A stretch of DNA of 64,000 nucleotides from Psammoneis japonica (lineage: Eukaryota), in contig QPGO01000071.1 in assembly GCA_008632985.1 (NCBI GenBank), positions 173,516 to 237,515 on the forward strand. Reading direction: 5' to 3'. The notes under the pieces are model-generated. The model was not told where the DNA came from, made no database searches, and saw only the letters and a list, made by a program, of their open reading frames with translations. Positions within the stretch are counted from its first letter, which is position 1, and each line of letters starts with the position of its first letter. This document shows, one piece after another, positions 4,387 through 63,765 of the stretch. A program made the position numbers and the translations under genes.

Positions 4387-5882
4387 ATGACGGCGACGCA
4401 CCGATCAAGTCAGAATGCCGAGCGACCACAAAAAAGCCAATTTCATCACCTGAAGACGATCAATTACAGTGCGTTTCCTTGTATGACGACAGCAAGATCC
4501 TCATTAGCCCGCTTTTCAAAGACACCAATAGACTCCCGGAACGCTTTTCTCATCCACTCCTCACCCGGGCATCCGTGAGATACAACAACCCTCCAAATTC
4601 TGTGCGTTTCAAGCTAGACGGACACCCATGGTCAGATCACTACGGCAAAGCTGGCGTGCATTCAAGAAGAGTGGTAGTGGATCTTGTGTCTGCCATGTGT
4701 GAGACCGAACACGACCTGGTTGCTTGCGCAGATCTCTCACGGTTTCGGCATGGAAACGCAGGAAACTTGTTCTTTCGCCGCAAACAACAAGGATCGCCCG
4801 CGCAAGAAGTAGCATGCATATCCTTATCGGGTGACGACACTCTTCAGGTCGTCTCTGTCCCGCGCATGGAGAAGTCGCTATTTCCAGACGTTTTGAAGAA
4901 CTGGCAATGTGGTTATACCGAGCGAAACGGATGTCCTGAATATCGACTGAGAGGCAAACCGTGGTGTACTAGCACCAGTGACAACCTTTCGACTCACTTT
5001 ATCGTTTTGGAGATTCTCAGACTCATGAGGAATCTTGGCTGGACAACGTGCGTTCCGTTCGATTGTACATCCCGAGATCATGATGCCGACTCGTTATTGT
5101 TTACAAGAGATGCGACTAGTGACACCAGAATTTCAACTGTGGCGAAAGCCTGTCAAATGTGTTGTATTGGCTTGGAACAAGAAAATGTTTTGAGCTTGAT
5201 GGGTGATTTTGATGACCAGACAACAAGCGCATTGGAATCCGCCGTTGCCATCGGTTGGCCCGACGGAATAAAGAGAGTTTTCAAATCCAATAGCACTCAT
5301 CGAATCGAATGCAATGGTGAACCGTGGACTGCCAGAATCACTACAGAGTCGATTGCTGTACGGAGCCTTGTTTGTGTGGTGCTTGAAGAATTGAATCGAG
5401 TTGGTTGGAGATTGTACTGCGCCCCTGATTTGTCAAGGAAAAATTCTGCAACGTCGTCCTTCTTTTACGTCCGAGACAACTTCTCGACCGCAATACCGCC
5501 AAGAGTCTTTGGCTGCGTTTCGTTGAATAACAATCATAAAATCAACTGCATTCGACTGCCGCCGGAAATCTCGAAGGCCTTGGTGCATTTCCTCGAATCA
5601 TCGGACGGCTGCCCTTGGCCACACGGTCTCAAGTCAAACATGCAAGTACGAGATGAACTGTCTGCTGTGAGCGGCAAGTTTTGTCGGGACCCATGGAACA
5701 CATTTACAAAATCAAGAGACAAGGCAAAGGTGTCGTACTTGGTCACTATGATCCTCCACAAAATTCTTTGCACCCACTCGAGCTCACTTGTCTGCGCCGC
5801 AGGCGTTTCGGCCGCAACTATCGGCGAGGACGACGACCCACTTGACGTTGATACATTCTTCTTTTCGTTTGGCACAGTATAG
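4387..5882 (+). CDS. Hypothetical protein with four internal repeats (…K/R-L-x-G-x-PW… followed by an amphipathic helix and GW)
   Basis: 467-aa ORF 4479..5882 with KLDGHPW, RLRGKPW, ECNGEPW, KFCRDPW repeats. The likely ATG at 4387 needs one frameshift. Confidence 0.7.
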
Positions 5883-6879
5883 TGAGAAATAATCAAATCT
5901 GAAATCTCTGAAAACGTACTTCTCAAATATGAAGAATCATGAACCGAGCTTGCTTGACGCCAAAGCACTACAGGTAATGCATTTACTTGCCAACATTAGG
6001 CAAAAAAATTGTTTTCGTGAACTAAAACCTAGTACAACTCATCTTTTATTATGCGATTCAACAAAGATGCTCGATATCTTTCCTTTCATCAACGAGAACT
6101 GATCTAGCAGAAAATGGAAGATAGATCGGGAGCGGCGAACTCAAGAAGTCCAAGTGTAACCCAATGCCCAACTTTTTCTTCGAAATTTCAACGTATTGGC
6201 GAATTTACATTTGCGTGTAAATTTCTTGATCGCGTTTATGAAATACAAAACTATGCTTAGTATACTTTATCCTACTCGACAAAGCATAGTCACTTCCATT
6301 CTTAATCCACGTCCGGATAAGGCAGAACTCTTCTGGTTACTAGAAAGTGCAAGGAACAGGAATGGCTGCTGAAATTGCACCCGTAAAGCCTAGCGAATCT
6401 TCGAAGAGGTCAAAGAATGGATTCGTGCTATTTGGGTAAAATGGCGCGATAGGGATTTCACCAATGGCACCGACCCAGTCACCGGTGCCACCGGTGATTG
6501 CAAGTACCCCGCCATGAACGTCTTCAACCAAGCCTGTAGCAGTGATAGTGCTGCCTGCAGCGTCGCCATACGTAAGCGTGCAATACCCCCCACCTTTTGG
6601 AGCATCTTCTGGTGGATTTGGCATCAAGGTGGCATTATCGGCATCTGGTAGTACCGGTATCAAGGTGGCATTCCTTGTCCTGACACAATGTCCATGCGTA
6701 GTGCCGATCAGCTCGAGCTCGTCAAACTCCTCAAAAATGGTGAGGTTGTAGAGAAAACAGTCCCAAAGGAATGTTGCACCATACATGTCAAGGTCGAGTT
6801 GGTCTCCAAACCTATCCCAGCGGTAATCATAATCTGGCTGGTAGAATCCGAGGTCCAGAAAGTTGTACTTGTTGCAGCT
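5774..6879. repeat. Segmental duplication, copy A (copy B at 19414..20343)
   Basis: Shared CCACTCGAGCTCACTTGTCTGCGC start, shared 3' flank, and near-identical dirigent-domain coding sequence in paralogs 2 and 3. Confidence 0.9.
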
Positions 6880-7227
6880 GCCGGGGCCATGTCCTTCATA
6901 GTATCCTTTGCCGCCTTTGCCGCCTTTGCCACCTTTGCCACCTTTACCTTTGCTCTTCTTTCCACTGTACCCCTTCCCTTTGGCACTCTCATAGCCCTTT
7001 CCTTTGGCATACTCGTACCCCTTGCTTTCGTACCCCTTGCCTTCATACCGCGCATCTTCGTAGTGTCCTAGACGACCAGGAGACAGATCGCGCATCTCGT
7101 CCGCCGTCTCGGTGGTTTCCGCTTCAGGGGCTGCCTTTCTATGAAGAGATCCAATGCCGATGGCTTGAGTGGTCATGGTGGCCAAAGTCATCGCGATGAG
7201 ATGACGAATGGCGATTGAAAACTTCAT
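6340..7227 (-). CDS. Secreted Lys/Gly/Tyr-repeat protein with dirigent/AOC-like domain (paralog 2)
   Basis: MKFSIAIRHLIAMTLATMTTQA signal peptide, RDL site, EGKGY/KGGKGG repeats, then GHCVRT...CTLTY...ITATG...LAITGGTGDWVGAIGEI. Confidence 0.85.
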   Translation of the reverse strand: MKFSIAIRHLIAMTLATMTTQAIGIGSLHRKAAPEAETTETADEMRDLSPGRLGHYEDARYEGKGYESKGYEYAKGKGYESAKGKGYSGKKSKGKGGKGGKGGKGGKGYYEGHGPGSCNKYNFLDLGFYQPDYDYRWDRFGDQLDLDMYGATFLWDCFLYNLTIFEEFDELELIGTTHGHCVRTRNATLIPVLPDADNATLMPNPPEDAPKGGGYCTLTYGDAAGSTITATGLVEDVHGGVLAITGGTGDWVGAIGEIPIAPFYPNSTNPFFDLFEDSLGFTGAISAAIPVPCTF

Positions 7228-10200
7228 TGTGACGGCCTGTGGGACAAGTCTGCATGCACTGTGATGCAAATGATAACTGTGAGTTGAGTGAAGAAGGCAC
7301 GGAAGAGACACTGTCTTTTGCTCGCAATCGACTTACCTTTCGTGAATTGTGAGAGCTGTTGTGGTTGGGAAGCTTTTGCATTTGGAGTGGATTTCTCTTG
7401 CTTGTGACCAAACTTGCTTGGCACGACTTACTGGGCATTTCTGAAATTCCAATTTTGCCATGCGTTGAGTTTGGGATCTACCAGTCGCTACATAGATTCA
7501 AAGCTCAAAGCTTGTCATGTTGAATGTTTCGAGCGCGACCCAATCCAAGACCCAACTCACGCTTTCTTAAAGTAAATTTTGCCTTGACAATGTTGCTTTT
7601 TTATAAATGGCTGTTACAGAAACCAAAGCGTTTCATCGTTATCTGATAAAATCTCATTTCATGCATTGCTTCTGGTGAGTCTCGAGGACAGACATTTTGT
7701 TATTTGACTTAACAAGAACCAAAAATTCAAAATCCAGAAACACGACACATCAACATGATGGGCGCCGCGGCGAGATCGACGTTGAAGGGGCGATCTGGAT
7801 CTGGATCTGGACTCGCAAGCACGCAAGCACCGACGACGATGACAATGGGCAGCTTGTCATGTTGTGACCAGGGCAGCAAGCCATTTTGCTGTGGTTCTTG
7901 GATGAGTTTTGACAGGCTTCAAACTCACACATGACACAGTGTTTCTCATGACTTCCACCTGCCCTTCTTTGCTGTCCCAGGATTGGACACAGAGACGCTG
8001 ATGCAGCAACAAACAGGAGAGAAAAAACAACACCCACTTCTGCAACTGCTGCAGCCACTGAATGCAAACTCTGTTCCATTTTTCTGTCAGCATGCTGTGC
8101 AGATGAGGTGTTGCACCCTTGTTGACACACGGCAAATTCGCACTTTGCGCGAGCTGCTGCAAAAGCACTCCAAATGGGGGGCGTGTTTGGATGTAAGAAT
8201 GTAAAAGAAACTTGCATGGAATTTGCACTAAAACAGTCAGTCAATCTGTGCATTTGGGGTTTTGGTGAATGCTGGATGGGCCAAGTGTGTTTCTCAATGT
8301 GCAAACTGTGCTGGGGGAAGAGCTGGAGGGTGCTGGCATGCCGGGTTCTTTTGGCATTTTCACAGCCAAAGATGCCCCTCAAAGCAGGCAAGTCTGGAAG
8401 ACAAGATGCTGCAATGTCACCCAATGAGAGGAAAAGAACACATCAAAAATGAGCTGGAAGTGCTGGCTGGAGCCTGCGCCATCAAACTGCAGAGCAAAGT
8501 GCCCACTTCAGAGCACACACTCAAAAGGACACCCTGAACTTGCACAAAAGGTTGAAATGTCATGGACAGGAGAAGCTTCACATGAGATCAAGAGCACAGC
8601 TCTAAAAATGGCTCTTGTTCACTTGGCTTCAACCAAAGTTGCAGGAGACATTCGTGCATTTGATGCAGTTGTGAGGACCTCCCCCCAAATGCTGTGTCAT
8701 GTCAAGTGCACAGCACCACAGAGGATCAAAAGCAGTGCCACAGCTGCAATGATTTTCCAGCCTGATCAAGGAGTCTCTGGGACAACCAGGTTTTGGTGAT
8801 TTGTCATGGCACTGAGCAAAAGGCAGTCAAAATGGGCTGTGCAGGAAATGGGCTTCAACAGACTTTCAACAACTTGAGGGTTTTTCTTGCCATTTTTTGT
8901 CTCCATTCAAGGATTTCACCTTTGCTCCCTTGTGTTGGCTTTCCATGTCATTGCCCAGCATCTCAGGTGATCCACCCCCCAAAGTCGCCTCATGTTGTGC
9001 TCCCTCTGCTCTGCAAGAATGTTGTGCAAGACACTCTTTAAATTGACAACAGCACAGCTTGTTGATGTGCACCTGCCCGGATGTTTCAATGAGTGCACCC
9101 ATGGCTTAAAAAAAGTCTTTGTGTCTCCACAACTGCACTGCCTTCTTGGAATCTCTCAGCATCCACCCCACACCCCATGTTGACTTTTGTGATGAGGACG
9201 ATGCCATGACCACACACTGTCAAGCTTGTTTTAACCTGTGCTCATGCAGCAGCAGATGTCACCACAACACTGTCAGGCCCCTGGCATGCCATGTGCCATG
9301 CTTGTGCACTGGACAATGTTGCTGGCACAAAGTCATCAAGATTGTTGCATGCTGCCCATGTGGCAGCTGATGTCACCACCATCAGCCATGTCAGAGTTTT
9401 GCATGCCCTGGCTGAACATCATGCAACGTCATGACTCTCAATGTGTTGTTGTTTGTTCTGCACACCATTGCACCCCACATCAAGCTGTTGTGGCTGCTGC
9501 TGCTCCTTGTCAAGAACTCAACAGAATCCTGCACAATGTCCATTGGCTGCTTGGCAGGCTTTCACAATGCCTCTCCCCACAGCCCCAGCAATCTGTCTGT
9601 CATTGCAAGATGGTTGATGATGCCAAGTCAGTTCTTTCTACAAAATTGGGTGACTCCACCTTTGAACATGATAATGACAATTGCTCCCATTTGTTTTGTT
9701 CTGAAGTGTTGCCATTGTCTGCCATTGGCAGCCCTGTTGACCACCCCAACAGCATGAACTTGCTCCAGAACATGCACCCATTGTCAGCTCCAAAGCATTG
9801 CCATGAGCCATTGTTGACAGCCCCCACAGCATGACACCAACTTCAGAACACACACTCCTGGTTTCCTGGAAGATGACAATTGCCCTGCTTTGGCTCAGAT
9901 TGTTTTGGACTTGTGCACTGCCCAAACCATCTTGTTTCCACCAACAATGACTGATGACTGGGACTCTCATCATTGCAATGAGGCTGAGAAGGCCTTGTCT
10001 CAAACAGTTTTTTCTGTCATTCCATGTGGCAAATCTCCCTCCCACTGAACTCTCAATCAGCAAATCATTGCAAATTTTTCATGAGAGTGCTGCTTGACAG
10101 AAATTGATGCTCAGCTGAGAAACATGGAGCACCATGCCGATTGCCATGAAAAAGCAGAATCGTGGTTGTGCAAAAAGAAAAAGGCACCAAACAACCACCT

Positions 10201-13200
10201 GTTGTTCACAGAGATGGTTGTTGATTGTCACCTGTTGTCTGATGCATCATTTGAGGAGAGACACACTGATGCTTTTTTCAAGCATCACCTGGCAACATTG
10301 GCTCATGGTGACATGCTTGACCACAGCTCCACAACAAATTTTTCCTTCTTCAAACTCAGCTTTTGAAGTGGTGGTTGGCCAACAACAACAAATGTGACTC
10401 TCTCAGGGAACACCAAAACTGGGAAACCATGCTGAATGATGTCATTGCTGAATGTGTTAGCCACAAGGCAAAGCTCTCCATCATCTGACATGATGGAACA
10501 CCTCTCTCCATTGGGAAATTTGTCTGAGGTCAGGTTGGCTGAGTTGCAGAGGAAACCACCTTCCATGAATGCAACAAAACACACAAAATGTGTTGTTCTT
10601 GTTCAAAGCACAGCAAGCCACTCAAGCTGGGAGGATTTGGTGTTGCACTCACTGACCTGCCCCTCATGGTGTGTGGGTTTGAAAGCATGATGGAGATGGA
10701 CTTGAAGCTGATGGATCAAGGCCAGCAGAGTTTGTTCCTGGAAAATGGCAACTCCTCCCTCCTTGGTGGATCAGTTTTTGATCCTGACACATGCAGCAGC
10801 AGCAGCAGCAGCACTTCTGAAGCTGACTGGGCCTCTGCTGCCTCTGCCAACACTGGCTCATCATCTGGAGCCCATGGGAGCTTTTAGACAGTTTCTGAAG
10901 ATGAGGACTCCATCTCCTCTTGCAAGTCTTCTGAGTGGCCAGTTGGCATCAGTGAAGGCAGCAAGTCAGATGACAAACTTGAGGGTGAACTTGTGAAAGA
11001 GCCAAAGAGGAGAGCCTGGCTTGTTGCAGGTGTGCACTTTGGGGGTGCACAAGTCTGAGTTGACCAGTGATTGCATCCAGCTGCTTTTGACAAAAACATT
11101 TGGTGACAGCGGCAAACCCAACATGATCAACATGAAAGTTGGCATGGATGGATGCTGTGCTGGGATGGATCAACACACCATCAAGGCAGCACTGGAGAAT
11201 GGAGGTGATGCAACAATGACATGCCAGCGGGTGCACAACTTTGCTTTTCCCTTTGGGCAGAAGCTCAGAGGATTCAATGACAAAAGAAAGGCAATGTCCA
11301 CAGAGGGCCTCCACTGCTTGGTGAAGAAAGCAGTGAAGACGCAGCAACTGCAGGCAGAGGCATTTTTTAAAGAAACTGTTGCTCAGCTTTGCTCCTGTTG
11401 AAATGGCCAAGGTGGTGGCATGCTGCTGCAATCAAAGCTGTGCCAAGAAAACTCAAGACATTGGATCCACTGCCTTCCAAGATGGGGTGCAAAATGTTGT
11501 GATCAACACATCCTTTGCACATCCCTTGGACAGTGAAGCCAAGAAGAACATGGCAGTGGGTCAAGCCATGGACAAGAAGCTTGCTGAGGACACAATGAAA
11601 CATGCAAATGACCCCAATGCTGTTGCTGTCTTGCCCATTTGCTCCATGTTTGAAGTGGGGCTGATGAGAAATGTGGAAGTGCCGTGGTTTCAAGACAGCT
11701 CGGACAACAATGGCATGACAGTCATGGATGGAAATCTGGGTGTCTGGAGAGTTTCTGTCTCACAAGCTGAAGACAAGAACCAGTGGAGGCACACAGCCAG
11801 AGGAATGGGAAGTTCTTCAGCAGGTGCAGGAGGGTGGGTAGAAATGTGTCTTGGTGGACACCATGGGTGACAATCTCTGTGGACATGTCACCACCAAGGC
11901 AAGCAATGCTCTCCAAAATTTGCATCATGTCACATGCCAGAACTTCCAATGCATCCTTTGCATCAATGGATCTGAACAGGGCAAGGTCATGTGGGGTGCC
12001 TGGGTGCAATTCTCTGAAGAGCTGCAAGGCACACATTCTGCAAGAAAAGAAACAGATTGAGCAAGTGATCAATTGTGGTGCATGCAACAGCCACACATGC
12101 ACAGACTGTGAAACATTTTCAAATGCCCCCTGCCTGCTGAAAAGAACTCCAAAAATCTGTGCTGTCTCTCTTGTTGAAGCTGTCTCAAAAACAGATCTGA
12201 TGCACTTGCCCAGTGCCCGCCTCATGAGTGATTTCAGGTTCAAAATTCCTGTTGGCTGTGAAAGCCCCTGAGCTGCTGCAGTCCAGCACCTTCTTGCACA
12301 CCTTGTCCAACTGCAAGCACCGCACATCCACACGATGTTCCCAGCTCACCAAATTGAAGATTGCAGAGCCATCAACAACTTCCAAAACAGTGCTGACCAG
12401 CAGATCTGCTCTCTCAAGTCATTGCCTGCATCTCCAATGGGAACATTTTGTGCCAACAAGAAAGCTTTGACAGATGACCAAAGCAAGAAACACTGCAGCT
12501 CTGGCTGGTGGTGGCACCAGCCAGCACCAAAGCCAATCATGGTGAGGAAAGGGAAGCATTCAGAAGACAAAGGCATCAATGCTGTTCTTTCTGATTGTGG
12601 GGTTCTTGTTGGCAAGGAGGAGGCCTCAGTGGAGGTGGGTCATGCACTCAAACATGGCACAGTTGCAAACGCTGCACCCAAAGAATGCTTGGAAAGGAGG
12701 GTGGCTTGTTGCAGTGATGTCAACAACTGCCTGTCAATGTGCAACAATCCCTTCCTCACTGTGAGAATGAATGTCCATCCAAATCTTTATGGAGAATTGG
12801 AAAAAGCACAACAACAGTGTGTCACAGGGGGAGAAAAACACTCAACTGTTGCATGGGATGTCACAGCATGCACTTTTGCAATGACTCACCAAAAGCCAAG
12901 ATGGTTAGACCAGGACTGCTGTGGACTCCATTGCATGCCCTTTGAAGCTGCAACAAATGTGCAAGGCCAAGCTGCACACAGATTGTTGGGGTAAAACTCA
13001 GGTGTCAATGCAGGAAGAAAAGGGGCTCTGAGAACAAGAACAAGTTTTGACAGTGTGAAAGGTGAAAGCAATGCATGTGTGAATGTGCTGGACACATGCT
13101 TTGTGCAAGCCCACAAAGCACACCTTCATGAAGGTGACAGCTGGAGACAGTCACAATCAGTTGGTGCATCCACAGATCCACACTGCACAACAAAAGTCTG

Positions 13201-15450
13201 CACTGCCCGCTTGCACAATGCCCACGCACTTGTTGTGCCATGTGAACCTTGCAACACTCTTTCATTGAACATCACTTTTCACAGAGTCAATTGTCAAATC
13301 CATTTTCTGTGAAAGAATCTTCCAATTTTCTAGACTGAAACAGCATGCCAGCATTCTTGATGAGTTGCTGGAACCATCAACCAGCTTGTTCACTTGTCAC
13401 TTGCCCCCTGTTTCATGCAGCATGAAATGGACATCTCAACAACATTGGAGTGCAACATGATGAACACCTTCCTTGGACCATGTTCCATGCCACCTGCAAA
13501 TGATGTCAAGTTGCACCATGCAGAATTTGACAGAATGGCAAGAGCTTTGCAGCACGTGCAATGTCAAAACGGCAACAACACAGGTGGCCAGTCTTCATCT
13601 CATTGCAGAAGTCACACAGCACTTGCCATTGTGGAACCAACACACACGCATGACATGAGCTTGTAGAGATCACCTTGTGACTGACTCATCTCATGTGAGG
13701 ACTCTGATGACATGCAGCAAACAATGCAAATGAAGAGTGCAGCTTGTGGCAAAACAAAAAATTGTGAGTTTTTCCTTGCTGCACATTTCTGTGCACAAGC
13801 AGGGACAAAACAAAGACACAGATGCAGCAGCAAGAATACAAAAAATGCACTCAGCTGTCATGTGGCCTGGATTGCAAGAAAAATTGTCAACTGTGAACAA
13901 AGTTGAAAACAAAACACATGTGCTGCCAACAATTCAAACCAATCCACAAGATTGTCTGTTGTGATGATGGCCGTGCCAGATGTGTGACAAAAATGAGTGC
14001 AAATTTTGATGCTCTTGTTCACAACATTCTTCACATCAACAGCCAGAGTCAATCATTGCACCAAACCATCGCACCCATGACATTGTTCATCACAAATGTC
14101 AACAATTTGTGGCTGCTGTTGAGATTTCTTTTTGTCAAAATGACAGGGAGAACTTGCAGACATGGGAGGTTGTCCCACACACACCTGGCATCATCTGCTG
14201 CTTGCTTTGTCACTCTGCTTCTTTGGTGCCACATGGGTTGTCAGTGTGCTTCCATCCAAAATCAAATCATTTGCATCCACGGTGTTTTTGACTCCATTCC
14301 TGTTGGTGGTGAAGCACTTGAGACTTTTGATCAAGCTGCAACAAAAGTGTTTGTGAAAGCCTTCTGCAGCTGTTGCAACTTTTGGCTGCACATGACAAGA
14401 GTGGAGATGTGCTTTGGCAAAACAAGAGAGAAGTTGTTGGTGGATTTGTTGCCCTTGTTTCTCAAGATGGGTGGCTCAATTTTCCAGAACAAACCCATCA
14501 ATGTGACCTTTTGTGGTTTGCTGAGGCTGTGAACAAGCCTTCTTAAATGCAAGCAAGCACTGTCATCTTTGTTGGTGATGCGGTGCCTCAACATCTCAGC
14601 TCCATGCATGTTCTCAACCAAAAAACAAGGAAGGCACTCATTGAGATGGCAGCTGTGGGCTGGAAACAGATGTCTGGAGCAACTCCAAGAACAGCTGTGT
14701 CTGACAAGCCTGTGGACGCACTTCAATCCAACCAATCAACTTGGGAAAAGGCAAAATCATCTGATGAAAGCAGGTCATTCACAGAATGGGGGATCAATTT
14801 CTTCATGGATTTGCCACTGCTTTTGTGCTCCACTGCTCATTTTTTTCTCAGGCATGCCTTTTTTTGCAATCAATGGCAACCTGAGATGCAAACATTCATT
14901 GACAGAAAGCCTTGGGTGTGCACCGCAAATGGTCCAAGGCTGACAATGGTCATTTTGGGCACAACTCAAAGTTGCAGCAGCCCAGTCAAAGTGAGAGCAG
15001 TGAGTTGAAACCACGGAAGCTGGATGTTTGCAAGGAAAGCAACAGTGCAGCTGCCTGGGACAGTTGCCAGCAAATTCATTTTGTCAGCTGATCTTTGCTC
15101 ACAGCCACAAAGGATGTTTCCTTGTGACAATTTGTGTGTGTTGTTTGGTTGCAACAGAGCTGCAGCCTGCCTGGGGAAGTCAGGGTGGAAGCAGGAAAGT
15201 CATGTGCACTCCTCAATGACACATGATGGTTCAACAGTGAGCCAATCTTGAGTTTTCCAAGTCAGGGAAAAATCTGACTTTGCATTTGTGATGTCGTGCA
15301 GGAGGGAACATTTCAATTTGACAGGATCATTGTGATGTCACCAAAAGAACCTGAGAAAATCTGATCTGACAGCAGCACACCTGTGTGTGCAAGCATTGCA
15401 TCATGAACATCTTCTGCAACAATTTGACAGCAGCTGCCATTGTGGCATCA

Positions 15451-15689
15451 GCAAGAAACAGGAGGAAATCTGGCGGCATGTGGTGTGTGCAAGCATTGTG
15501 GCACATGGTCCCAAGAGCCCCAATGTGTGCTCAGGAAAATCATCTGACTTGCATTGGGGATGTCATCCTGCAAGAAACATGAGGAAATCCAACAGCACAC
15601 AGTGTGTGCAAGTGCTGCATTGCATGATCCTGAGAACCCCAATGTGTGCACAGGAATGTTGTCTGACTTTGCATTGGTGATGTCATCCC
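15451..15689 (+). repeat. Degenerate tandem repeat, ~119-bp unit x2 (partial related copies from ~15268)
   Basis: GCAAGAAACA.GAGGAAATC...GTGTGTGCAAG...CCCCAATGTGTGC.CAGGAA...TCTGACTT(T)GCATTGG.GATGTCATCC at 15451 and 15570. Confidence 0.8.
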
Positions 15690-17524
15690 AGGACTTGCGG
15701 GCTGCCTCCAGGTTGTGCCCCACAACAAATTTCCAAAGCCATGCAGAGTTGTCATCTCAATTGTTCAAAATTGTGCTCATCAAAATGCCATGTTTCTGAA
15801 TGAGATCACATTTCAAAAATGATGGCAACAACTCAGTGCATCAATGAATTAAGAATGTGCAGGAGGCCAATCATCACAGTTGTGAAATCAGGGGAAAAAC
15901 AGGGTTGGATTGAGCTGCGTGCCACACAAATGGACTTTGACAGCCAGCAGATCAGCGGCATTGGTGCAACTCCCACAAGGAGAAACAAGATGAGACTTTC
16001 AATGGCAGCAGATGCTCTCCAAGATGCCATGAGCACCAATGGTTGAAATGCCACTGTTGGCTGCAACCAGACAGAATCTCTGGATAACAAGTGACAAAAC
16101 AAAGACCACAGCTGCATGTCATTGTTTGACCATGACAACATCCAAAGTGCTGCTGCATCAGATGCTTGCACAACTCATCTTGTGAAGAAGCACACTGGAG
16201 CCACCAACTCCACCAAGGATGTGAGCAACATTTTCAGGGCTGCTGTCAAGAAGAAACACTGTGATTTTGTAAAGAACATGAAGAAGGGTGCCATTGACAG
16301 CAAGGAATCAATGCTGTTGGCAATCTGTTGCTTTGGCATGAGAAACAACAAGAGCAAATTCAGGGTCACTGACATCACCAAGTGTGTTGGCAAGAGGCCA
16401 GTCTGGGAGGGTTGGAGTGCTGCACTCTGCGTTGCCCATGGCAGCTGGGACACTCACTCCAATTCATTGTTGAGTGTTGAGGAAGCCCCATGGAAGAAAT
16501 GAGAGTGCAAGCACTCCAATGGATTTTGTTGCACCACACAGGAAGAAGTGTGGTTGTGGAACAAGGGTCATCACATCAGAGAAAACACACACAAAATCAG
16601 GGAGCTGAACAATTCTCTGAAGATGTGCTGCAATGTTGCTGCCTGCACATCAAGAACAGTGCAGAATGGAGAGGAGTGACCTCAAGAGAAGGACATCAGC
16701 TGTGCACCATTTCCAGGAAATGGTGCCAAGGGCAGACAAGTGTGTTTCAGAAGTGCAGAGAAAGCACAAGGCAAACTGCCCCATTCTCTCAAGCAGCCAC
16801 TCACCATTGCAAAAATGGTGGCATCAACTTTGGAAGGTTTGAGACAGTCATTTTCAGCACAGATGCCACAAGAATGAAATGGATGATGATGCCTTTGACT
16901 TTAGCAACAACAAGGGGACAGTGAACAAAGGCAGGCATGGGGAGTGGTGCACAAAACAGACAGCAAACAAGAGCTGTCCACAGCCATCTTTTCTCATTCT
17001 AAACAAAGGGGCTTGTCAGACCAAATGAGAACAAGCCACCAAGGAACAAAGTGCATTCATCAGGCAGCTGTGGTGAGCTTGAAGGTTCCTCCAGCATCAA
17101 TGACAGCACCTGTCCATCCAGCATCAGGCAAAGCAAGAAACCAAATCTGACAAAAAGGAAGGAGAGTGGCGCCAGTGACAAGACAAGCAGAAAAAAGGGC
17201 ACCCAACTAGAGCATGGGTGCAAACCCAGGTGCACTCATGTCTGCTGCCACCAACATGAATCAAGCAGCCACACATCTGCCAACAATGAACCAGGCCCAA
17301 ACCTCTCTGCCACTGATGAACAAGAGGAGCTGCCAGAGGATTGGCAAATCATCAAGAAACTGATCAGATGCAAGAAATGTTAAAACAGGTGTCTTGTTTT
17401 TTGGACACACAAGAGAAAACATGGAAACCTGAAGTTGGCCCAATGAGCAGTTGGTGGAGGAGCATCAGAAAAAGGCAGAAGGAGAAGAGGCAGAGAGCAT
17501 TGCCAACCAATGAAGGAAAAGTGT

Positions 17525-17645
17525 GTGTGCTGCATGTGCAGGGAACTCTTGCACAACAGAGTGCCTTGCATCAAATGTGGAGTCAAAAACCACAGGAGCT
17601 GCTCCTTTCAGCAGGCCAGTGGCAAGCACTGGTGCTTTGGTTGTT
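17525..17645 (+). pseudogene. PHD-finger-like relic within the mutated block
   Basis: ORF 17510..17761: CCMC-x9-CIKC-x4-HRSC-x9-WCFGC, the C4HC3 spacing with the conserved Trp. Confidence 0.5.
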
Positions 17646-19413
17646 GCAGATGTGAGGATGAGCAAAGCAGAAAAAGCAATGTGGAGTGCAAGGAGCAAAA
17701 TCACACCAAGCAGTCAGCACTTTTTAAGCTGTGTGACATGCCATGGGAGCTTTTCAATTGAAGGTGCAAAAATGGAAAATCAAGTGGACATGAATGACCA
17801 CAGAGCAGGACATTTGTGCGATGCAAAAAACCAAAAGATGCTGCAGAGCAGCATGCTGCATTTCTTGTGGTGACAATGTGTTGCAGGCAGAGGGGTGTTC
17901 CTAAAAGGAATGAAAAATGGAGCCCTGCTGAGATCATTTGAGTGGCAGCCATTTGTTTGTTTGTGGATGCAACAGCAGGATGTGTGGCATCACAGGTGGT
18001 GCTGTCAGCTGAAGAGAGAGAGAGCAGAGTCATGACAGTGGAACAAAGCTGATGGTGCAGAGTTTGAGTGCAGCAGAACAATGGTGTTGTCGGATGCAGC
18101 AGAGCAAAATGGTGAGGCATGGATGCAGTCATTGCATGATGGCTCCACATGTCAAATTGCACAATGTAGATTGGACAATGGCACAAGGAAACAGCACAAA
18201 TGCCAACTCCAAATTGCAGATGTGATGTGTGCATGATGTGGACAAATGCGCAGTCAAATTTCTTCTGACAGTGTGCCAATGATGTCACTCAATCACATCA
18301 AAGGAATTTGACTTTAGCAAGATGATGTCAGATGACAATGTCAAGCAGTCAGCCAAGACAAAAGTCTGATGTTGTTTGGTGATGTCACAGAGAAAACCAA
18401 GTCAGGTGTCTTGCCTTGACACAGGAACACCTGACATGAGACAAGATTGACAGGGGGCCCTCAAACTGGTGAGACACAACCCTTCTGGCAGTGGATGTGG
18501 TGGTGGAGGGATGCAAAACAACACAACCAGAGATGGACAGTGAAGAGGGTCCCTCATGACAGGCTCCATCCTGGGGAAACACATTCTCTGTTTGCAACAT
18601 CAATGGCAACAAGATGGGGGTGTCACTGTCAATCATTGTGCAGGAGTTTGCTGGGTGCACTGAAGGCAAACAACAACTGGTGGTGACCCATTCTGGTGGA
18701 CAAGGCCTGCCATTCATGATGCTTGGACTTGAGTGTTGAGATGCAGAGGAGGGCAAAAACTGCTTGGTTGTGCACAAAAAGTGCAAACCAGACATCAAGG
18801 GGTTTGAGCAAAATCTGCACCACACCTTGCTGGTGCTGCCCATGCAGAAAGTCACTGCCAAACTAGCTTTGGACCCAGGGTTTTAAGCTGGCATCAAGTG
18901 TGGCATTTTGGACCCCAACAACAATTCATGAAACCTGCAACAACTGAGTTTCTGGGAAGTGAGCAAGAGATTGGGTGCAATGATTAGAAGAGCTTCTCTT
19001 GCAGGTGCAAGAAACAATGAGCAAAGGAAAAAGGTTGTTGTTGCAGGAAGGCTAACTTGGTTTGCAACATCAAATCTCGGCAAGCCTCCATGCAAGGAAA
19101 TGCCTGTCCCAATGGAGATTACCAAGAAGACCTGGCTTGAACAACACTCCTGTGCATCTGAGGAGGGTTAAGGCCGGTGGTGTTGTTGGAGAGGGGGATC
19201 TCGAAGAACACCACGAAAGCATAGTTTTCAAAATCATGTGTGTGGGATATAATGAAGAGAAGCACCTAAGATATATACTCAGCATGCTGTGGATCAAGAT
19301 AGACTGTCTGCTGTGAGTGACAAGTTTTTCGGGACCCGTAGAACACGTTTGCAAAATCCAGTGACAAGGCAAACGTGTCATAGTTGGTAACTACGGTAAA
19401 AAATGCTATGAAA

Positions 19414-20343
19414 CCACTCGAGCTCACTTGTCTGCGCAGCAGGCATTTCGGTTAACGTGGATACATTCTTCTTTTCGTTTGACACAGTGTAGCGGGAAAC
19501 AATCAAATCTGAAATCACTGGAAAGGTAATTCTCACATCTGAAGAACCACGAACCGAGTTTGCTTGATGCCAAAGCACTACAGGTACACTACTTGTGCAT
19601 TTACTTGCATCGGGAGTTTCAAAAACAAGAAGCTCAAAGTAACCCAATGCCCAAATTTCTCGTCAAAGGCTTACGGTATTTGCGAATATCCTCTGCGAAT
19701 TCTACATCTGCGCGTGTTAAATATTCTGATCACGATTCTGAAATACAAAGCTATGCTTACTACACTACTTTATGCCACTCAACAACGCATATTCACTTCC
19801 AATCTAAATCCCCGTCCGGTTAAGGCAAAACTGTTCTGCTTAAAAAGTGCAAGGAACAGGAACGGCCGCTGCAATTGCGCCCGTAAAGCCTAGCGAATCT
19901 TCGAAGAGGTCAAAGAATGGATTCGTGCTATTTGGGTAAAATGGCGCGATAGGGATTTCACCAATGGCACCGACCCAGTCACCGGTGCCACCGGTGATTG
20001 CAAGTACCCCGCCATGAAAGTCTTCAACCAAGCCTGTAGCAGTGATAGTGCTACCTGCATCATTGCCAAACGTAAACGTGCAATATCCACCACCTTTTGG
20101 AGCATCTTCTGGTGGATTTGGTATCAAGGTGGCATTCCTCGTTCTGACACACGATCCATGCGTAGTGCCGATCAGCTCCAGCTCGTCAAACTCCTCAAAA
20201 ACGGTGAGGTTGTAGAGAAAACAGTCCCAAAGGAATGTCGCGCCATACGAGTCAAGCTCGAGTTGGTCTCCAAACCTATCCCAGCGGTAATCATAATCTG
20301 GAATGTAGAATCCAAGGTCCAGAAAGTTGTACTTGTTGCAGCT
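19414..20343. repeat. Segmental duplication, copy B (includes an orphan 3' fragment of the 4387..5882 gene)
   Basis: Aligns by eye to 5774..6879. Confidence 0.9.
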
Positions 20344-21021
20344 CCCATACTTTCCTCCATATTTTCCCTTTCCTGGACCAGGACTTGGACCAGGGCCGGG
20401 ACTAGGACCAGGACCATATCCTTCGTATTCTTCGTAGTATCCTTTGCCTTTTCCATATCCTCCCTTTCCAGGACCTGGACTTGGACCAGGGCCATATCCT
20501 TCGTATCCGTATTCTTCGTAGTATCCTTTGCCTCCGATGTATCCCTTGCCTTTATTATATCCTTTGCCTTCGATGTATCCCTTGCCTTCATAATAACCGC
20601 CTTCGGAAGAACTTCTCTTGCCACCCTTGCCTCCACCTCGTTTGCCACCTCTGCCTTTTCCTTCTCCACCTTCTCCTCCTCCCTTGCCACCTCTGCCTTT
20701 TCCTTCTCCGCCTTCTCCTCCTTTTCCTCCGTATCCCTTGCCTCCATAACCCTTTCCTTCGTAACCTTTGCCTTCATATCCTTTTCCTTCATATCCCTTG
20801 CCTTCGTACCCTTTCGCTGGTCCAGGAGACACTCTAGGTCCGGGGCTGCGTCTAGGTCCAGCGCTGTAGCGCTTCGGAAGACGACGGTTCTCTGCATCGG
20901 CGCCCACGAGAATTTCCTCAGTGGGAACAGTAGCTTGGAGAGAGTCTTGTTCGGCGGCAAACGAAGTCGCGATGGCCAAGGCCATTGCGCTGACGCACAT
21001 AATCCTGGTAATGATCTTCAT
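19840..21021 (-). CDS. Secreted Lys/Gly/Tyr(/Pro)-repeat protein with dirigent/AOC-like domain (paralog 3)
   Basis: 393-aa ORF: signal peptide, ENRRL site, (EGKGY)n, GG-rich and GPGPSP repeats. C-terminal domain nearly identical to paralog 2. Confidence 0.9.
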   Translation of the reverse strand: MKIITRIMCVSAMALAIATSFAAEQDSLQATVPTEEILVGADAENRRLPKRYSAGPRRSPGPRVSPGPAKGYEGKGYEGKGYEGKGYEGKGYGGKGYGGKGGEGGEGKGRGGKGGGEGGEGKGRGGKRGGGKGGKRSSSEGGYYEGKGYIEGKGYNKGKGYIGGKGYYEEYGYEGYGPGPSPGPGKGGYGKGKGYYEEYEGYGPGPSPGPGPSPGPGKGKYGGKYGSCNKYNFLDLGFYIPDYDYRWDRFGDQLELDSYGATFLWDCFLYNLTVFEEFDELELIGTTHGSCVRTRNATLIPNPPEDAPKGGGYCTFTFGNDAGSTITATGLVEDFHGGVLAITGGTGDWVGAIGEIPIAPFYPNSTNPFFDLFEDSLGFTGAIAAAVPVPCTF

Positions 21022-21797
21022 TGTGACGGCGGGGATTCAACTGCGAAAGCAGACAATGTTAATGTGTGAGAGACATATTAAACATCTTCTTGGAATGGAA
21101 GCGTCATGTTTTGAATTGACGTACCTGGGGAATGTGCTCCTTCTTGCGGCGCTCCTGATGATGTGGATGCGCAGCCAAGAATGATTTTGTGAGAGTCGAA
21201 ATGTCACCCCCGATTTTTGTGTGCGTTGAAGAGTCGTGGGTATGCGTTGGGATACGTCTACCGTGCCACGTAGAAAACTACAGGAAATGCCGTGACTCGA
21301 CAACGAAAAATTGTCCACCTCAACTGAATTGAGCACAAAATTTGGCGCACTCACATTTCATGCCAAAAACGTACTTAGGGTGCGATTATTAGCAAGATAC
21401 CTCAATCATGTATACTATATATATCTACAGTGTAAGATTTGATATCGGCGTTTAGGTCAGTGGTTCAATTGCATCATCCAAACATTAATAATATTAGAAT
21501 GGTTCAAAAAATTGTTTCCCAACGATGAGCATGACGTTATTTTTGGTGGACGGGCAAACGGCCAAAATAAAATTATTATTTTTTGCATGTCTGATGATCT
21601 CTTTCGATCTTCTCCTCTTCCATCTCGTTTCCAAATCTTTGTGTTAGATCACATCCACAAAGATACCTCTCTTACCTTGCGCAAGACAACCTACGTCGCA
21701 AGAGTGAAACCACATATGGAGAATAGAGTCAGAACAAGTGTTTCGTTCGTTATCTTTGCGATATTGTCACTCCTCTAAAACCGAAAACATCCGAAAC

Positions 21798-49432: not shown

Positions 49433-49667
49433 NNNNNNNNNNNNNNNNNNNNNNNNNNNNNNNNNNNNNNNNNNNNNNNNNNNNNNNNNNNNNNNNNNNN
49501 NNNNNNNNNNNNNNNNNNNNNNNNNNNNNNNNNNNNNNNNNNNNNNNNNNNNNNNNNNNNNNNNNNNNNNNNNNNNNNNNNNNNNNNNNNNNNNNNNNNN
49601 NNNNNNNNNNNNNNNNNNNNNNNNNNNNNNNNNNNNNNNNNNNNNNNNNNNNNNNNNNNNNNNNNNN
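49433..49667. other. Assembly gap (235 N)
   Basis: Run of N. Confidence 1.
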
Positions 49668-58543: not shown

Positions 58544-59050
58544 CTCCAGGAATAATTGATCTCTTGGACAGATGACTGGTCATCCGTGTTTTCCTGGTTT
58601 GAAGCCACATCCTGTGGCACTTGTCAACCTGTTGGAGCTCTGTTCTTGTGCCAGGCTTGAGGTGACATTGCCATGGGAACCTTTGTCAACACCCTGATGC
58701 AGGTGGTGCATGGTCCCTGGACCAATCTGCAGCTGTTGGCTTGGGGACTTCAAGGTTGGAAGCTTGGGGTTGCCCCCGCTCCTGCTCTGTGGGATGTTGC
58801 TTGGAAGAAGGATGCAGCTCAATCACCCATGGTCTTGAAGCAAACTGCAACAACTTAGAAAGACTGTGTTGGTGCCTTGGAAACACACTGCATCTGCTGC
58901 ATACTGCATGCACATGACATTGACTGCAGCCAGAGGCGTGCTGACCATGGTTGGGGGGGCGGCAACTCTGCAGCATTGTCCGCACCACAACTCAACCAAC
59001 TTTGTAGATGCTGATTGAAGTCAATGTCCTTGAAGACTTGGCAACTGCAG

Positions 59051-61240
59051 CTGTGGGTGGGGACGCCGTAGAAATCACGTGGGTGCCATTTTTTTAGTGA
59101 AATCAACCTCTGTGCCCAAATGGACCATGGCGGTCGTCGACGTCGTGACAAAAAAAAAGTGTCATCATCGCGACTCACAAGACTCAACGTGCGGTCACAA
59201 CGCGCAAGGCCGGGCTTCCAACTCCCGCCACAATGTTTGCCAAGCGACCACCAAGTCAACCTGCCGTTTCTCACCAAATCGCTTTTGCACCCTCAGAATC
59301 ACTGTTTCAGACAGCACCTTCGAAGCATTGCATCCGCCATCATCTTGTCAGGTGGAATGCTGCGAGGGGCTGTCTCGAACAACGATTTGGTTGAGACATT
59401 AAAAACAATGTCGACACTTGACCAACAAACATGCCGTTTCGCACCACACATCGCTTTCGCACCCTCAGGATCAACACAAAAAGATGCACATTTGATGCCA
59501 TCGTGTCCGCCGTCATCGAATTAGGCGAGGGGCTCCGAAGCACAATTTTTGGCGGCAGTTTCATCGAGCAATTTTGAAATGTCTGCGAATGACCTCACAT
59601 CTTGTCTGAACATCATGCCGTCATCCAAATGGCACCTTCACGAGAAACAGTTTTGTTGCATGCTGGAAACAAAGACCACAGAGACTCAATCTATCAGCAA
59701 ACAACTTGCCATCATGATGAAAGCTCTGAGAAAAGGATTTTTGGGCTCTTAGACTCTGAGACATTGAGAGCAATCGGTTCTGAGTTCACAACAAGCAACA
59801 AGTGTTCCAGCACTGCATTTTCGGCCATGTCAACAGGAAGAGCGCCACTGAGAGGCACATTGTGGAGAGCAATGGGTGGTTGGACATGGTTGGAGAAACA
59901 CGGTGCTGCAGCAGCAGTCATGGCATTTGATGAACAAGGACAAGCAGCAACCGAGGAGGACAAGGTTTGGACATGCAAGCGTGCAACATTCACGAAGTGG
60001 GCACAGACATTGTGTGTGATCCCAATGTGTTGACAATTGGCACCGGCATGGAGGAATGCACCAACTGTAAGTCAACTTTGTTGACGCAACAAAGACCATC
60101 AAGGAACGGTGTCCGTGCGCAAAGGTCATCGGCGGCAGTTCGAACCTTTCGTTTGGATTCCGAGGAGCAACGAAAATCCTCGAATCAATTCATGCCGTGT
60201 TCTTGAATCATGCAATCCTTGAGTCTGGAATGGATTTTGGTGTCATGAATGCGAAGGAAGTGCTTGCTGTCTTGATGAATTGGACGATGACACGAGGGTG
60301 CCATGCAAGAATCTTGCACTCAACAAGACAGAGGATGAGACAGACGAGATGCTAAAGCAAACAGCGCACAGAAGAGCACGCATTGATGCCAGAAAGAAGG
60401 GCTTGCCTCTGCCTTGGAAGCCCCATGGCAAACCTGCAAACAAGCCATGCCTTGCATTCTCTCATGACAAAGTCATCTCCAAACCTGCCATCGAACCGCC
60501 TCTGCTGATGCCAACGTCAGAAGCTGCAAAGAATCATGTCCTGAACAGACAAGCAGAAAGAACAAAATGGCAGAGCTCATTGTGCTTTGAAATGAGAACT
60601 TGGTTCCACCGCGAAATGGGCGTGCATTGGCACTCGGCGGATTTTTACACGGTGAAGTGTGGCAAAAGAGAGAAAGATGCCATTGATCGTTCTCTGCAAC
60701 TGGAGAGACAGCTGAAGTGGCAGATGCATTGTCGGAGACGTGATTGATTCCACATTTGATGTCGGTCACTTTTGGTGTCACAATGGCTGCAATGTCATTC
60801 CAAAACTGCAAACGAGACATCAAGGATTTTCAGTTGTGATTGCACGGTGAAGTGCGGCAAAAGCAACAAAAGCACCATTTCACGTTCTTTCCAACTGCGG
60901 AGTCAGGTGACTTGGTGGACATGTTGTTAGAGACGTGAGAGCCTCTGCTTTTGACACTGGCCAGCATTTGCATGACAAAAGTTGCAGTGTCATTCCAAAA
61001 CTACAAACGAGTGATGGTGGGATTTTCGAAAAATCAAAACATTTTCAGTCATGATTGCATGGCAAAGCACGGGAAAATGGCGGTCACTTCATCGATCTCG
61101 TCAACGACGAACACAATGCAAATGAAAAAGTTGCCCCCCATTTTAAGACCACTGCAACACCCTCCATGGACTGGGGCAGCTCTCGTTTTGATCCAAGAAA
61201 ATTCATCTCTACATGATTTCTACGGCATCCCCTCCCACAG
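59051..61240. mobile_element. 2.19-kb DNA transposon with 30-bp terminal inverted repeats and 3-bp (CAG) flanking duplication, probably non-autonomous or decayed
   Basis: Left end CTGTGGGTGGGGACGCCGTAGAAATCACGT (59051-59080) vs right end ACATGATTTCTACGGCATCCCCTCCCACAG (61211-61240), 27/30 inverted match. CAG on both sides. Confidence 0.8.
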
Positions 61241-61346
61241 CAGCATGCTCAAATGCAAAGGCTGTCAACACCTTGCAGGCCACGGGCATGTGCCTTCTTG
61301 TTCTGTGAAAGCCATGAAGAGTTTTTTGTGCCCTCTTTTTTGGCAA

Positions 61347-61765
61347 TGGGGATTTGTTCTTGAATGTGCCGATTGCCAATGATCAGCTTTGAAGCTCAAA
61401 TGCTGGTCAATGGCAGTTCTTCTGGCAAGGGTGACTCAATGCAAACCAACTTGGAGATGAGTCATTGCAACCTTGCAGAAGCTGGCACCGCAGGCTCTCA
61501 TTTGGAATGACGTTGGGCTCTGGAGCAAATCTCTTGAGCTGGGTCACTTCAATCAACAGTGAAGAGTTTTGTGGCTGCTTTCTCTTTGACAACAGGGGTT
61601 TGTTCTTGAGTGCACCGATTGCCAATGATCAGTTTTGAAATTCCAGTCAATGGCAGCTCCAGCAAGGGCAACTCAGTGCAAGCCAACTTGGAGATGGCTT
61701 GTTGCAACCTTGCAGAAGCTGACACCACAAGTTCTCATTTGGAGTGACGTTGGGCTCTGGAACAA
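61347..61765 (+). repeat. ~175-bp degenerate direct repeat (61347-61529 and 61595-61765)
   Basis: TTTGTTCTTGA...CCGATTGCCAATGATCAG...CCAACTTGGAGATG...TTGCAACCTTGCAGAAGCTG...TGACGTTGGGCTCTGGA shared. Confidence 0.85.
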
Positions 61766-62059
61766 AGATCTCATGGTCAACTTGTGACTGTGTTGATCCA
61801 TTGGATGCATGACAGCAGGGATGCCATGGCCAGCAAATCTGCGGTGCCCAACAGATGGTCTGCAGAAAAGTGAGTTAAAATGCAGGGTGCATTGTGCTGT
61901 GTGTGCTCTCAACCAGAGAGGGGCAAATGTCTCAATCTGTGATGCTGGTCATGACACGTGTCATGTCTGAGCCATGATCAGCCAATGCCCTCCAGATCTT
62001 TGTTTGTTGTTGCACTTTGACCCACCATGAGATCATGGACGGGTCATCTGACATCACCA

Positions 62060-63400
62060 CGCTCCACAGACACAGCTGTGTGACAACAACAACAGCTTAG
62101 AAGCATGTGCCATGCTGCTCTGCAGAGTGTCAGAACAAATTTCTCATGCAGAAAAAGTTCTTGAAGTGACCATTCATTGCTGGTGTTTCATGTCTCATTC
62201 TAACTTGCATGTTCCCACAGCTGTTGTTGATCAGTGCTTGCCATCATGCCTGGGCACTTGACATGCACTGGAGCCTTGCCCATGCAGCCATCATCTGCTT
62301 CAATGCATTCCCCTTCCTCCAGTTGATGGAGCAATCTGTCTTGGAGAAAGATCATCACATTCTCTGCAGAGAAATGGCCCTGAAATCCAAACAATGTTGG
62401 AAGTGCAAATGGCAGCTGCAGCTTCATGCCAGAGACCAGAATGCTTGAACATGAGCACAGAAGCATCCATCTTGTTCTCCAATCAGAAGCAACCTGTTTT
62501 TCACAACAAAGTCAGTGCCATCATCCACAGACACAAGGCAATCATTGCCGGTGTCATCTGTCTTGCAACTCTCCCAAATGATCTCATTTGAAGATGAGTT
62601 CAACAGAAAAGATTGGGTGAGAGCTTGCCAGCTCTTGTTGTCAAGCAAGAAACAACAAGCAGACAAACAAACATCACTGCCCTTCAGACAGGAGATCTCC
62701 TTGAAGATCCAGCAGATCCAAGATCTGTGGGTTGCCTCATCCACACCTTCAACACAGGAAGCAAGAAACAACAAGCAGACAAACAAACATCACCACCCCC
62801 TCCAGACAGGAGATCTCCTTGAAGAGCCAGCAGACCCAAGATCTGTGAGTTGCCTCATCCACACCTCCAACACAGGAAGCGCCCAAAAAAGCTCAGTGTT
62901 TCAGGCCCAGAGCCTCAGCTTCTGCCAACTGGCAATGATGACAGGCACCTTCTTCAAACTCTTCTTTTTGCAATGTGTTTTGAATGCAACATTTCAAATG
63001 TGACAGCAATGTCTGTCAGGGTGATGCAAACAAGCCAAGCCCTCCTGGCTTGAACTTTCAGCACAAACTTGCCCTCCAAAGAAGAAAGATGATCACCGGA
63101 AGGCGCAAGCACCAGCTCTCTTGCAGCATTTTCTGCTGTGAAGCAGCTGCAACTCTCACTTCCACACTGTTGCAACCAGGATGTGGACAAGTCTCCCATT
63201 CTGGAAAGACCAAATCTGGGGCAGTTGGGCTGGCATGCTGCCAGACCAGCCACAGAAGCAACTTCTTGGTGCAATCCAGAAATCAGCTTGCAACACAGGC
63301 TGTTTTTGATGTTTTGCGGGGATGCACCAAAACAATGACAGAGACAATGGGCACCCTGGCAGAGCATTGTGTGTTGTCGAGGAAAAACTCGTCCATGTCG
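62060..63400 (-). pseudogene. PIF/Harbinger-like (DDE_Tnp_4-type) transposase relic, with a 116-bp internal tandem duplication (62645-62760 / 62761-62878)
   Basis: Fragments across frames: FGASP, GVDEATHRSW, GNDCLVSVD(D)GTDF, FKHSGLWHE...IVWISGPF, GECIEADDGC, RHET..N.HFKNF...F*H...HGTCF*AVVVVTQL. Family assigned from recalled motif pattern. Confidence 0.75.
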
Positions 63401-63765
63401 AGGTGGCAATCTGCAGAGAAAAGGCCATCGGCGGAGAGAACTGGTGTTACTCACTGTACAACGATTTGGCACTGAGCACAGGACCAGCTCCTCAGTCACG
63501 GATTGATTCATCTTAAATTCGGAATCTTCATAGATGTATAAATGCGTATGTACAGATATTTGTGAATGAAAATTTGCTGCCAACACAAAAATCTGAAATA
63601 GGCTTCCTTAATCTTCTATTTTAAAAAATCATGCTCCACGCGTCATCGTCCATCGTCGCATCGTCCATCGTCCCCACACCCGATCGTCAAGATGACACGC
63701 AAAGTAACACAAATAGATGTAGATAGAGGCGGCTTGGCAACATAATGACGTCTACCATGTTGGTT

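Follow-up and report, generated by a model that had tools for sequence, protein, structure and literature searches.

How does a segment of a eukaryotic chromosome more than 11 kb long come to be almost free of both TpA and CpG, and was it always so, or has it been rewritten by mutation? The question is raised by a 64,000-nt stretch of Psammoneis japonica DNA (GenBank assembly GCA_008632985.1, contig QPGO01000071.1, positions 173,516 to 237,515), the whole of which is referred to here as the window. An earlier note, made from the letters of the window alone, had pointed to a block depleted of TpA and CpG at 7715..19220, and had read it as the end state of two converging processes, TpA to TpG/CpA and CpG to TpG/CpA, acting within one domain on transposable elements of a diatom. 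The window was found to contain two such blocks. They are probably resident, essentially non-coding and presumably silenced diatom nuclear DNA, rewritten by two transition processes, each limited to a domain and each working on double-stranded DNA.

Composition and borders of two TpA-erased blocks

The window has a G+C content of ~47% and background observed/expected (obs/exp) ratios of ~0.6 for TA and ~1.0 for CG; outside the blocks, the ratios per kb lie mostly at 0.4–0.9 for TA and mostly at 0.75–1.26 for CG. With expected counts taken from the density in 20000–49000, block 1 (Table 1) contains 37 TA where ~461 were expected, and its CpG-poor part 50 CG where ~648 were expected, with TG and CA about doubled. 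In the 1-kb bins of 8001–19000, TA obs/exp is 0.01–0.08 and CG obs/exp 0.02–0.16, and the 1-kb bins of the block give 1.7–2.4 for TG and CA; over 7838–19221, the values are 1.98 for TG and 1.84 for CA. The near-absence of both dinucleotides described in the earlier note is thus confirmed, and its coordinates are off by no more than a few bases at either end. The TA obs/exp of the block is 0.05, far from the ~0.6 of the host.

The sharp borders described earlier are supported, the left one being tighter than the right. On the left, the last flanking TA lies at 7710 and the next at 8194, and the change falls within ~100 nt, whereas the right border is graded over ~400 nt, with 1–2 TA per 100 nt in 18801–19200 and 8 per 100 nt from 19201, and CG returning from ~19330. 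The left edge of the block is formed by a leader that is CG-rich and TA-free, showing that the TpA domain begins before the CpG-poor domain.

A second block (58554..63447) is not part of the finding in the earlier note. Together the two blocks account for ~16.4 kb of the 64-kb window, about a quarter, and form discrete domains (n = 2) whose borders lie within ~100 nt, save for the graded right border of block 1, amid flanks with a TA obs/exp of ~0.6. In block 2, TpA loss reaches 2.7 kb past CpG loss: across 58554–61229, nearly all TpA has been lost and CpG loss is one third done. Taken with the leader of block 1, this means that the processes are separate or operate in different domains. TpA loss and CpG loss are separable, and the single shared domain envisaged earlier for both processes does not stand.

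Table 1 Coordinates of the blocks, of their zones and internal duplicates, and of the flanking paralogs
Feature	Position	Strand	Remarks
Block 1, TA-erased, non-coding-like	7711..19221 (11,511 nt)	.	Between two tandem paralogous genes
CG-rich, TA-free leader, left edge of block 1	7743..7837	.	13 CG and 0 TA in 95 nt
CpG-poor part of block 1	7838..19221	.	CG obs/exp 0.08
Old tandem duplication in block 1, period ~100–119 nt	15281..15693	+	TG/CA swaps at 8/25 and 3/25 aligned pyrimidine-purine steps
Block 2, TA-erased	58554..63447 (4,894 nt)	.	20 TA, ~196 expected
Block 2, zone with TpA loss only	58554..61229	.	TA obs/exp 0.10; CG obs/exp 0.63, 100 CG
Block 2, zone with TpA and CpG loss	61230..63447	.	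TA obs/exp 0.02; CG obs/exp 0.15
Old tandem duplicate in block 2, inside the TpA-only zone	60645..61082	+	TG/CA swaps at 10/47 aligned steps
Old tandem duplicate in block 2	61314..61773	+	TG/CA swaps at 7/46 aligned steps
Young tandem duplicate in block 2	62644..62881	+	93% identical; TG/CA swaps at 0/24 aligned steps
Paralog A and 3′ flank, left of block 1	5651..7311	-	Normal composition; GKGY-repeat protein, putatively secreted
Paralog B and 3′ flank, right of block 1	19297..21021	-	Normal composition; GKGY-repeat protein, putatively secreted

Evidence for a mutational origin

The pyrimidine-purine steps of block 1 are in balance with those of the host. TA (37), CG (50), TG (1317) and CA (1378) sum to 2782, compared with 2728 calculated from host density, and the gain of TG and CA (~1072) is close to the loss of TA and CG (~1017). 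The G+C content of the block, 47.3% compared with 48.0% in the host, matches ~420 TA gaining and ~600 CG losing a G or C.

Tandem duplicates within the blocks preserve a record of the ancestral steps. Where one copy reads TG and its partner CA, two adjacent transitions are needed, a pattern that is rare unless both arose independently from an ancestral TA or CG. Such TG/CA double swaps were found at 30 of 198 aligned steps in six tandem duplicates within the blocks, but at 0 of 224 aligned steps in a control of similar divergence, the paralog pair of normal composition beside block 1. The swap-free young duplicate at 62644–62881 arose after conversion.

A second assembly consisted of k-mer contigs, up to 315 kb long, of run X1, the sole public run found with the stretch. 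Its contigs match block 1 at >99% identity, and this agreement between window and X1 excludes an assembler artefact. The comparison draws on 40 of 91 differences, those within the block lying in 7931–12016; some of the flanking differences stem from X1 contig ends and possibly belong to a paralog. Among the differences listed, 14 of the 26 substitutions in block 1 exchange TA or CG with TG or CA. On the same basis, 8 of the 33 residual TA/CG sites in 7711–12016 are converted in X1, with 3 of 13 TA sites and 5 of 20 CG sites reading TG or CA, compared with a difference of ~0.3% at other positions. In the reverse direction, again among the differences listed, X1 keeps CG or TA at six positions where the window reads TG or CA, one pair being a full TG/CA swap. 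These differences suggest two haplotypes that are still diverging.

Single-base indels also separate the window from X1 in block 1 (8529–17020), 12 among the differences listed and 25 more besides. They may be consensus errors of a long-read assembly on the side of the window, or else genuine heterozygosity for indels.

The second assembly bears on whether the depletion could arise at the level of reads, modified DNA (5-methylcytosine at CG and a modification at TA) being base-called as the transition partners with TA and CG in reality still present. Such an artefact would be favoured by the fact that the sole public run with the stretch may be the source of the window assembly, and by the many single-base insertions between window and X1, which are typical of long-read assemblies. 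However, recovery of the block from X1 by k-mer assembly, at a depth of ~55–60, requires accurate reads. Miscalls on one strand would moreover yield a mixed consensus, with T/C at the first position and G/A at the second, making TA and CG as often as removing them, and yet both are ~95% absent. Finally, among the differences listed, TA or CG is kept eight times by the window and six times by X1, so that the error would not be one-sided. We consider a read-level artefact very unlikely.

The same data weigh on the view that the composition is native, that is, that the blocks are foreign DNA, viral or horizontally acquired, in which selection has kept TA and CG rare from the start, for instance as an escape from nucleases or dinucleotide-sensing defences. 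Sharp borders are as in an insertion, and with the pyrimidine-purine steps normalised, the rest of the window yielded no homologous sequence. The swaps in the old duplicates nevertheless demand an ancestral TA or CG, the step total and the G+C content are those of the host background once conversion is allowed for, residual TA and CG sites differ between the two assemblies, and the block has no intact genes, domains or coding periodicity. The depth of X1, ~55–60, is roughly level inside and outside block 1 and flat over its borders, with several stretches higher (13.5–15.8 kb and 17.5–18.0 kb). Contaminant or viral DNA with intact genes, which the earlier note had named as a possible alternative, is not what was found: the block, flanked by diatom genes of equal read depth, is devoid of intact genes. 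Native composition is in our judgement highly improbable.

Because the mass balance, the TG/CA swaps between old duplicate copies and the disagreements of the two assemblies point the same way, the origin of the blocks reads as mutational rather than as native composition. The same three observations bear out the earlier interpretation of block 1 as the end state of TpA and CpG conversion to TpG or CpA.

Properties of the conversion and comparison with known systems

TG and CA occur in block 1 at a ratio of 48.9:51.1. Neighbouring steps show no autocorrelation (lag-1 value 0.025, permutation standard deviation 0.019), and TG/CA is not locally over-dispersed (chi-square 24, 22 degrees of freedom). 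The near-equality of TG and CA, together with the absence of autocorrelation and over-dispersion, indicates that the events were single and random as to strand, which speaks against editing of one RNA strand followed by retro-copying, and likewise against single-strand deaminases that act processively.

In the RNA-editing scheme, an ADAR-like enzyme would edit UA in a transcript or in double-stranded RNA, followed by reverse transcription and insertion. A TpA target would suit such an enzyme, since ADAR usually prefers a U 5′ of the edited A, as stated in the main text of Mettrop et al. 2026 (bioRxiv 10.64898/2026.01.13.699255). Editing of one RNA strand, however, would yield only TA to TG, whereas TG and CA are near-equal and free of runs or local skew, and conversion carried on in place after the internal duplications. 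Neither a reverse transcriptase, nor a long terminal repeat (LTR), nor a poly-A-type end was found in the block by Pfam scans and BLAST. ADAR also has a 3′ G preference, which differs from the 3′ preference observed here (T, C > G > A). This scheme is extremely improbable.

More generally, APOBEC/AID and ADAR work on single strands, and the clusters that they produce are strand-coordinated and fall in TC/WRC or UA contexts. They share with the diatom blocks deaminase-type transitions, in their case against foreign nucleic acid, but the diatom events are strand-symmetric, uncorrelated and located at two palindromic dinucleotides. Single-strand deaminase hypermutation, whether by APOBEC/AID or by ADAR with retro-copying, was rejected as a candidate, there being no autocorrelation, no over-dispersion and equal TG and CA.

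The survival of TA depends on the neighbouring base. With both strands counted, the surviving fractions in blocks 1 and 2 are 0.23 and 0.22 for TAA, 0.10 and 0.16 for TAG, 0.04 and 0.07 for TAC, and 0.015 and 0.018 for TAT, giving an order of loss by 3′ base of TAT > TAC > TAG > TAA; TTAA is the commonest surviving context. A context bias of this kind is absent from residual CG, and AA obs/exp is the same inside and outside (1.17 and 1.16). If the block is at steady state, its (TG+CA)/TA ratio of 73 and (TG+CA)/CG ratio of 54 would mean that loss outpaces regeneration through ordinary transitions at least 50–70-fold.

What was observed directly is the conversions, with their symmetry and context dependence, and the borders of the blocks; two processes would account for these observations. 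The first would be a TpA-specific hypermutation, yielding TpG or CpA, most simply by deamination of adenine after T on either strand and fastest with a pyrimidine next. The second would be decay of CpG to TpG/CpA, from deamination, enzymatic or spontaneous, of 5-methylcytosine laid by a diatom CG methyltransferase. The domain of the first process would be the wider one and the process itself the further advanced. Each event would affect one random strand, independently of neighbouring events, and conversion would have gone on after the old internal duplications and appears to be setting two versions of the locus apart even now.

A signature like that of the first process is found in Bigelowiella natans. 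In mutation-accumulation lines of this organism, 231 of 302 nuclear mutations fell in integrated giant virus and virophage DNA; essentially all of these were A to G or T to C, and every GC-biased one occurred at TpA, giving TpG or CpA. The genome also contains 124 TpA-depleted, CpA+TpG-enriched clusters, mostly unannotated, and an ADAT2-like adenine deaminase was proposed, though not demonstrated (main text of bioRxiv 10.64898/2026.01.13.699255). In both organisms, the change is limited to TpA and gives TpG or CpA on either strand, the affected domains are of kilobase scale amid normal genome and carry a footprint of TpA depletion with CpA+TpG enrichment, and many affected regions are unannotated. 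B. natans is, however, a chlorarachniophyte (rhizarian) and the present host a diatom (stramenopile). Erasure is near completion here, with a TA obs/exp of 0.05 compared with 0.45 in the giant-virus region according to that main text, and the loss extends to CpG. Neither viral nor transposon content was detected in the diatom blocks; the mutation rate was measured there and is inferred in the diatom. A 3′-neighbour hierarchy is seen in the diatom blocks. The main text on B. natans contains no mention of CpG (0 occurrences) or of diatoms. Literature searches, with subscription journals outside their coverage, found this preprint as the one direct precedent, and no report of TpA erasure in diatoms. 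On this pattern, the blocks would be best filed as TpA-hypermutation of the B. natans kind in a different supergroup lineage, overlaid by ordinary but very advanced CpG decay.

The target of the first process could instead be thymine, an enzyme modifying the T of TpA, for example by oxidation to 5-hydroxymethyluracil, so that it mispairs with G and becomes C. In dinoflagellate DNA, 5-hydroxymethyluracil shows a TpA preference (older literature). T to C and A to G are inseparable in the palindromic TpA, and the observed context order fits equally well as a 5′ preference, ATA > GTA > CTA > TTA. The precedent of B. natans leans, as a hypothesis, to adenine deamination, at least in the main text cited above, and we regard modification of thymine as improbable.

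The two losses could also be coupled. Polymerase eta prefers WA, and its errors include transversions. In a coupled process, deamination at methylated CpG would create G:T mismatches, and error-prone patch repair of the polymerase-eta type, acting on A at WA, would mutate nearby TpA; alternatively, a dual-specificity ADAT2/3-like deaminase would act on C in CG and on A in TA. Both losses overlap over most of block 1, and ADAT2 enzymes that deaminate A and C are cited in the preprint on B. natans (bioRxiv 10.64898/2026.01.13.699255). Against coupling, TpA is nearly gone across 58554–61229 with two-thirds of CG kept, the leader at 7743–7837 is CG-rich and TA-free, and TpA has been removed more completely than CpG. 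The conserved step total implies that essentially all changes were transitions, whereas transversions would be expected among polymerase-eta errors; AA obs/exp is unchanged; and the context bias is present in residual TA but not in residual CG. A coupled origin is unlikely.

As to the proposed CpG decay, CG methylation of transposable elements by DNMT5a is established in diatoms; DNMT4 enzymes related to fungal RID are widespread in diatoms as well (according to PMC9998398). Like the decay of methylated repeats, the change in the blocks turns CG into TG and CA symmetrically on both strands within a non-genic domain, and the depletion of CpG is accompanied by a matching excess of TpG and CpA in block 1 and in 61230–63447. 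It differs in degree, as the CG obs/exp of 0.08 is below the roughly 0.2 of methylated vertebrate DNA, and in the presence of a second loss, that of TpA, beyond what methylation decay explains.

Fungal repeat-induced point mutation (RIP) likewise consists of a domain-limited burst of dinucleotide-context transitions that destroys coding capacity. RIP, however, makes TpA out of CpA, so that TpA rises, where the diatom blocks lose it, and it needs duplicated DNA, whereas depth is flat over most of block 1 and the adjoining true paralogs are untouched. A fungal-type RIP was rejected on these grounds: TpA is erased rather than raised, the adjacent paralogs are unaffected, and depth is flat over most of the block, with several stretches higher.

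Several points weigh against the proposal of two domain-limited processes rewriting resident diatom DNA. Run X1 and the window assembly probably come from one and the same sample, which leaves no independence at the level of reads, and the differences between the two assemblies may be alleles or errors. The blocks are not recognisably foreign, having no domain, homologue, LTR or terminal inverted repeat (TIR), unlike the viral regions of B. natans. We infer enzymes, methylation and a border-setting chromatin state, and hence both mechanisms. Since TpA is its own reverse complement, A to G is the same change as T to C, and modification of thymine is equally compatible with the pattern.

More tentatively, TpA-directed hypermutation may be an old genome-defence or heterochromatin-linked system across the SAR supergroup (stramenopiles, alveolates and Rhizaria), which in diatoms runs to completion beside cytosine methylation and produces ‘TA/CG-null’ islands under a T-A-pyrimidine rule; we see this as possible, though on balance doubtful. 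T-A-pyrimidine is the context of TadA/ADAT-type adenine deaminases, which see U33-A34 in tRNA. A bolder form, with one dual A/C deaminase behind both losses, has little probability. A mutator confined to defined chromosomal domains and erasing a single dinucleotide there would be a new kind of eukaryotic genome defence, so far measured in one organism, in which the enzyme is only proposed. Its finished footprint in a diatom suggests that the system is widespread in SAR, and any candidate enzyme must reproduce the order TAT > TAC > TAG > TAA. The question thereby moves to a group with knock-out model species, such as Phaeodactylum tricornutum (as described in PMC9998398).

Identity and setting of the blocks

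Six-frame Pfam searches, with stops read as X, returned no significant family for block 1 (six whole-block and twelve half-block frames, the halves at E ≤ 10) or for block 2 (six frames); the best rows for the blocks, DUF498, GAIN_A and DUF7598, had E values of 0.024–0.058 and were not significant. A phmmer search with the 240-residue open frame at 12272–12991 gave 0 matches among 1.84 billion representatives. BLAST of the blocks against the whole window, with the pyrimidine-purine steps equalised, returned internal tandem duplicates only, and revealed no LTR, no TIR and no kinship between block 1 and block 2 or with the flanking genes. The period-3 signal in block 1 is at the non-coding level, with a median of 1.8 compared with 5–12 in genes. 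Transposable elements, which the earlier note had taken to be the target, thus found no support in the six-frame Pfam searches, the search of the representatives or the search for LTRs and TIRs. A transposon or viral origin of the blocks is possible, and heavy decay could mask it. The further idea in the earlier note, that such blocks could do away with TA target sites for TA-inserting transposons, is speculative.

Open frames of at least 150 codons number 11, compared with 5.5 ± 2.6 in 100 Markov simulations, of which three reach 11; this mild excess may be a faint coding remnant or chance. The near-absence of TAA and TAG itself lifts the number of long open frames and may mislead gene prediction, and blocks of this kind defeat homology-based annotation of transposons and viruses.

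The flanking genes indicate a diatom host, as the earlier note had supposed. The best named relatives of a flanking oxidase are from diatoms only (Seminavis, Pseudo-nitzschia, Nitzschia, Cylindrotheca and Thalassiosira, at 46–49% identity), as are those of a flanking transporter (Attheya, Thalassiosira oceanica and Cyclotella). For two host proteins, the best relatives are 52–62% identical, and none exceeds ~62% over most of the query. By these relatives, the host is a diatom without close sequenced kin and with an unannotated genome, and not Bigelowiella.

Block 1 sits between two tandem minus-strand paralogs, with open reading frames at 6340–7311 and 19840–21021, which share 87% amino-acid identity across 179 residues. 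In the duplicated DNA unit, 5651–7047 matches 19297–20778. The right border of the block lies ~75 nt from the edge of this unit, and the left border 400 nt upstream of the point where the left reading frame begins (7311). Inspection of the translations by eye makes an N-terminal signal peptide likely in both paralogs. Each also has low-complexity GKGY/GPSPGP repeats, and a conserved C-terminal domain of ~180 residues that contains cysteine and is 87% identical; neither matched a Pfam family at E ≤ 0.001. The repeats give rise to a long open frame on the other strand as well (20014–21069).

Elsewhere in the window, a CitMHS/TrkA-C transporter is spread over two frames, 54360–55805 (+) and 56458–57501 (+), with ~650 nt between them, and is probably a single gene with an intron or a frameshift. 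A scaffold gap of 235 N at 49433–49667 accounts for the low G+C of the 49001–50000 bin. Scans of the window for Rfam families and for transfer RNAs gave 0 matches.

The contig depth of X1 rises to 69–150, compared with ~55–60 elsewhere, at 13506–14072, 17475–18041 and 20310–20876. X1 also contains contigs 90–95% alike, whose loose ends are free of TA and CG at 17559 and 17835 and normal near 20750–20789. These extra contigs hint that the genome carries related, converted paralogous copies at other loci, and that the GKGY gene harbours a repeat family.

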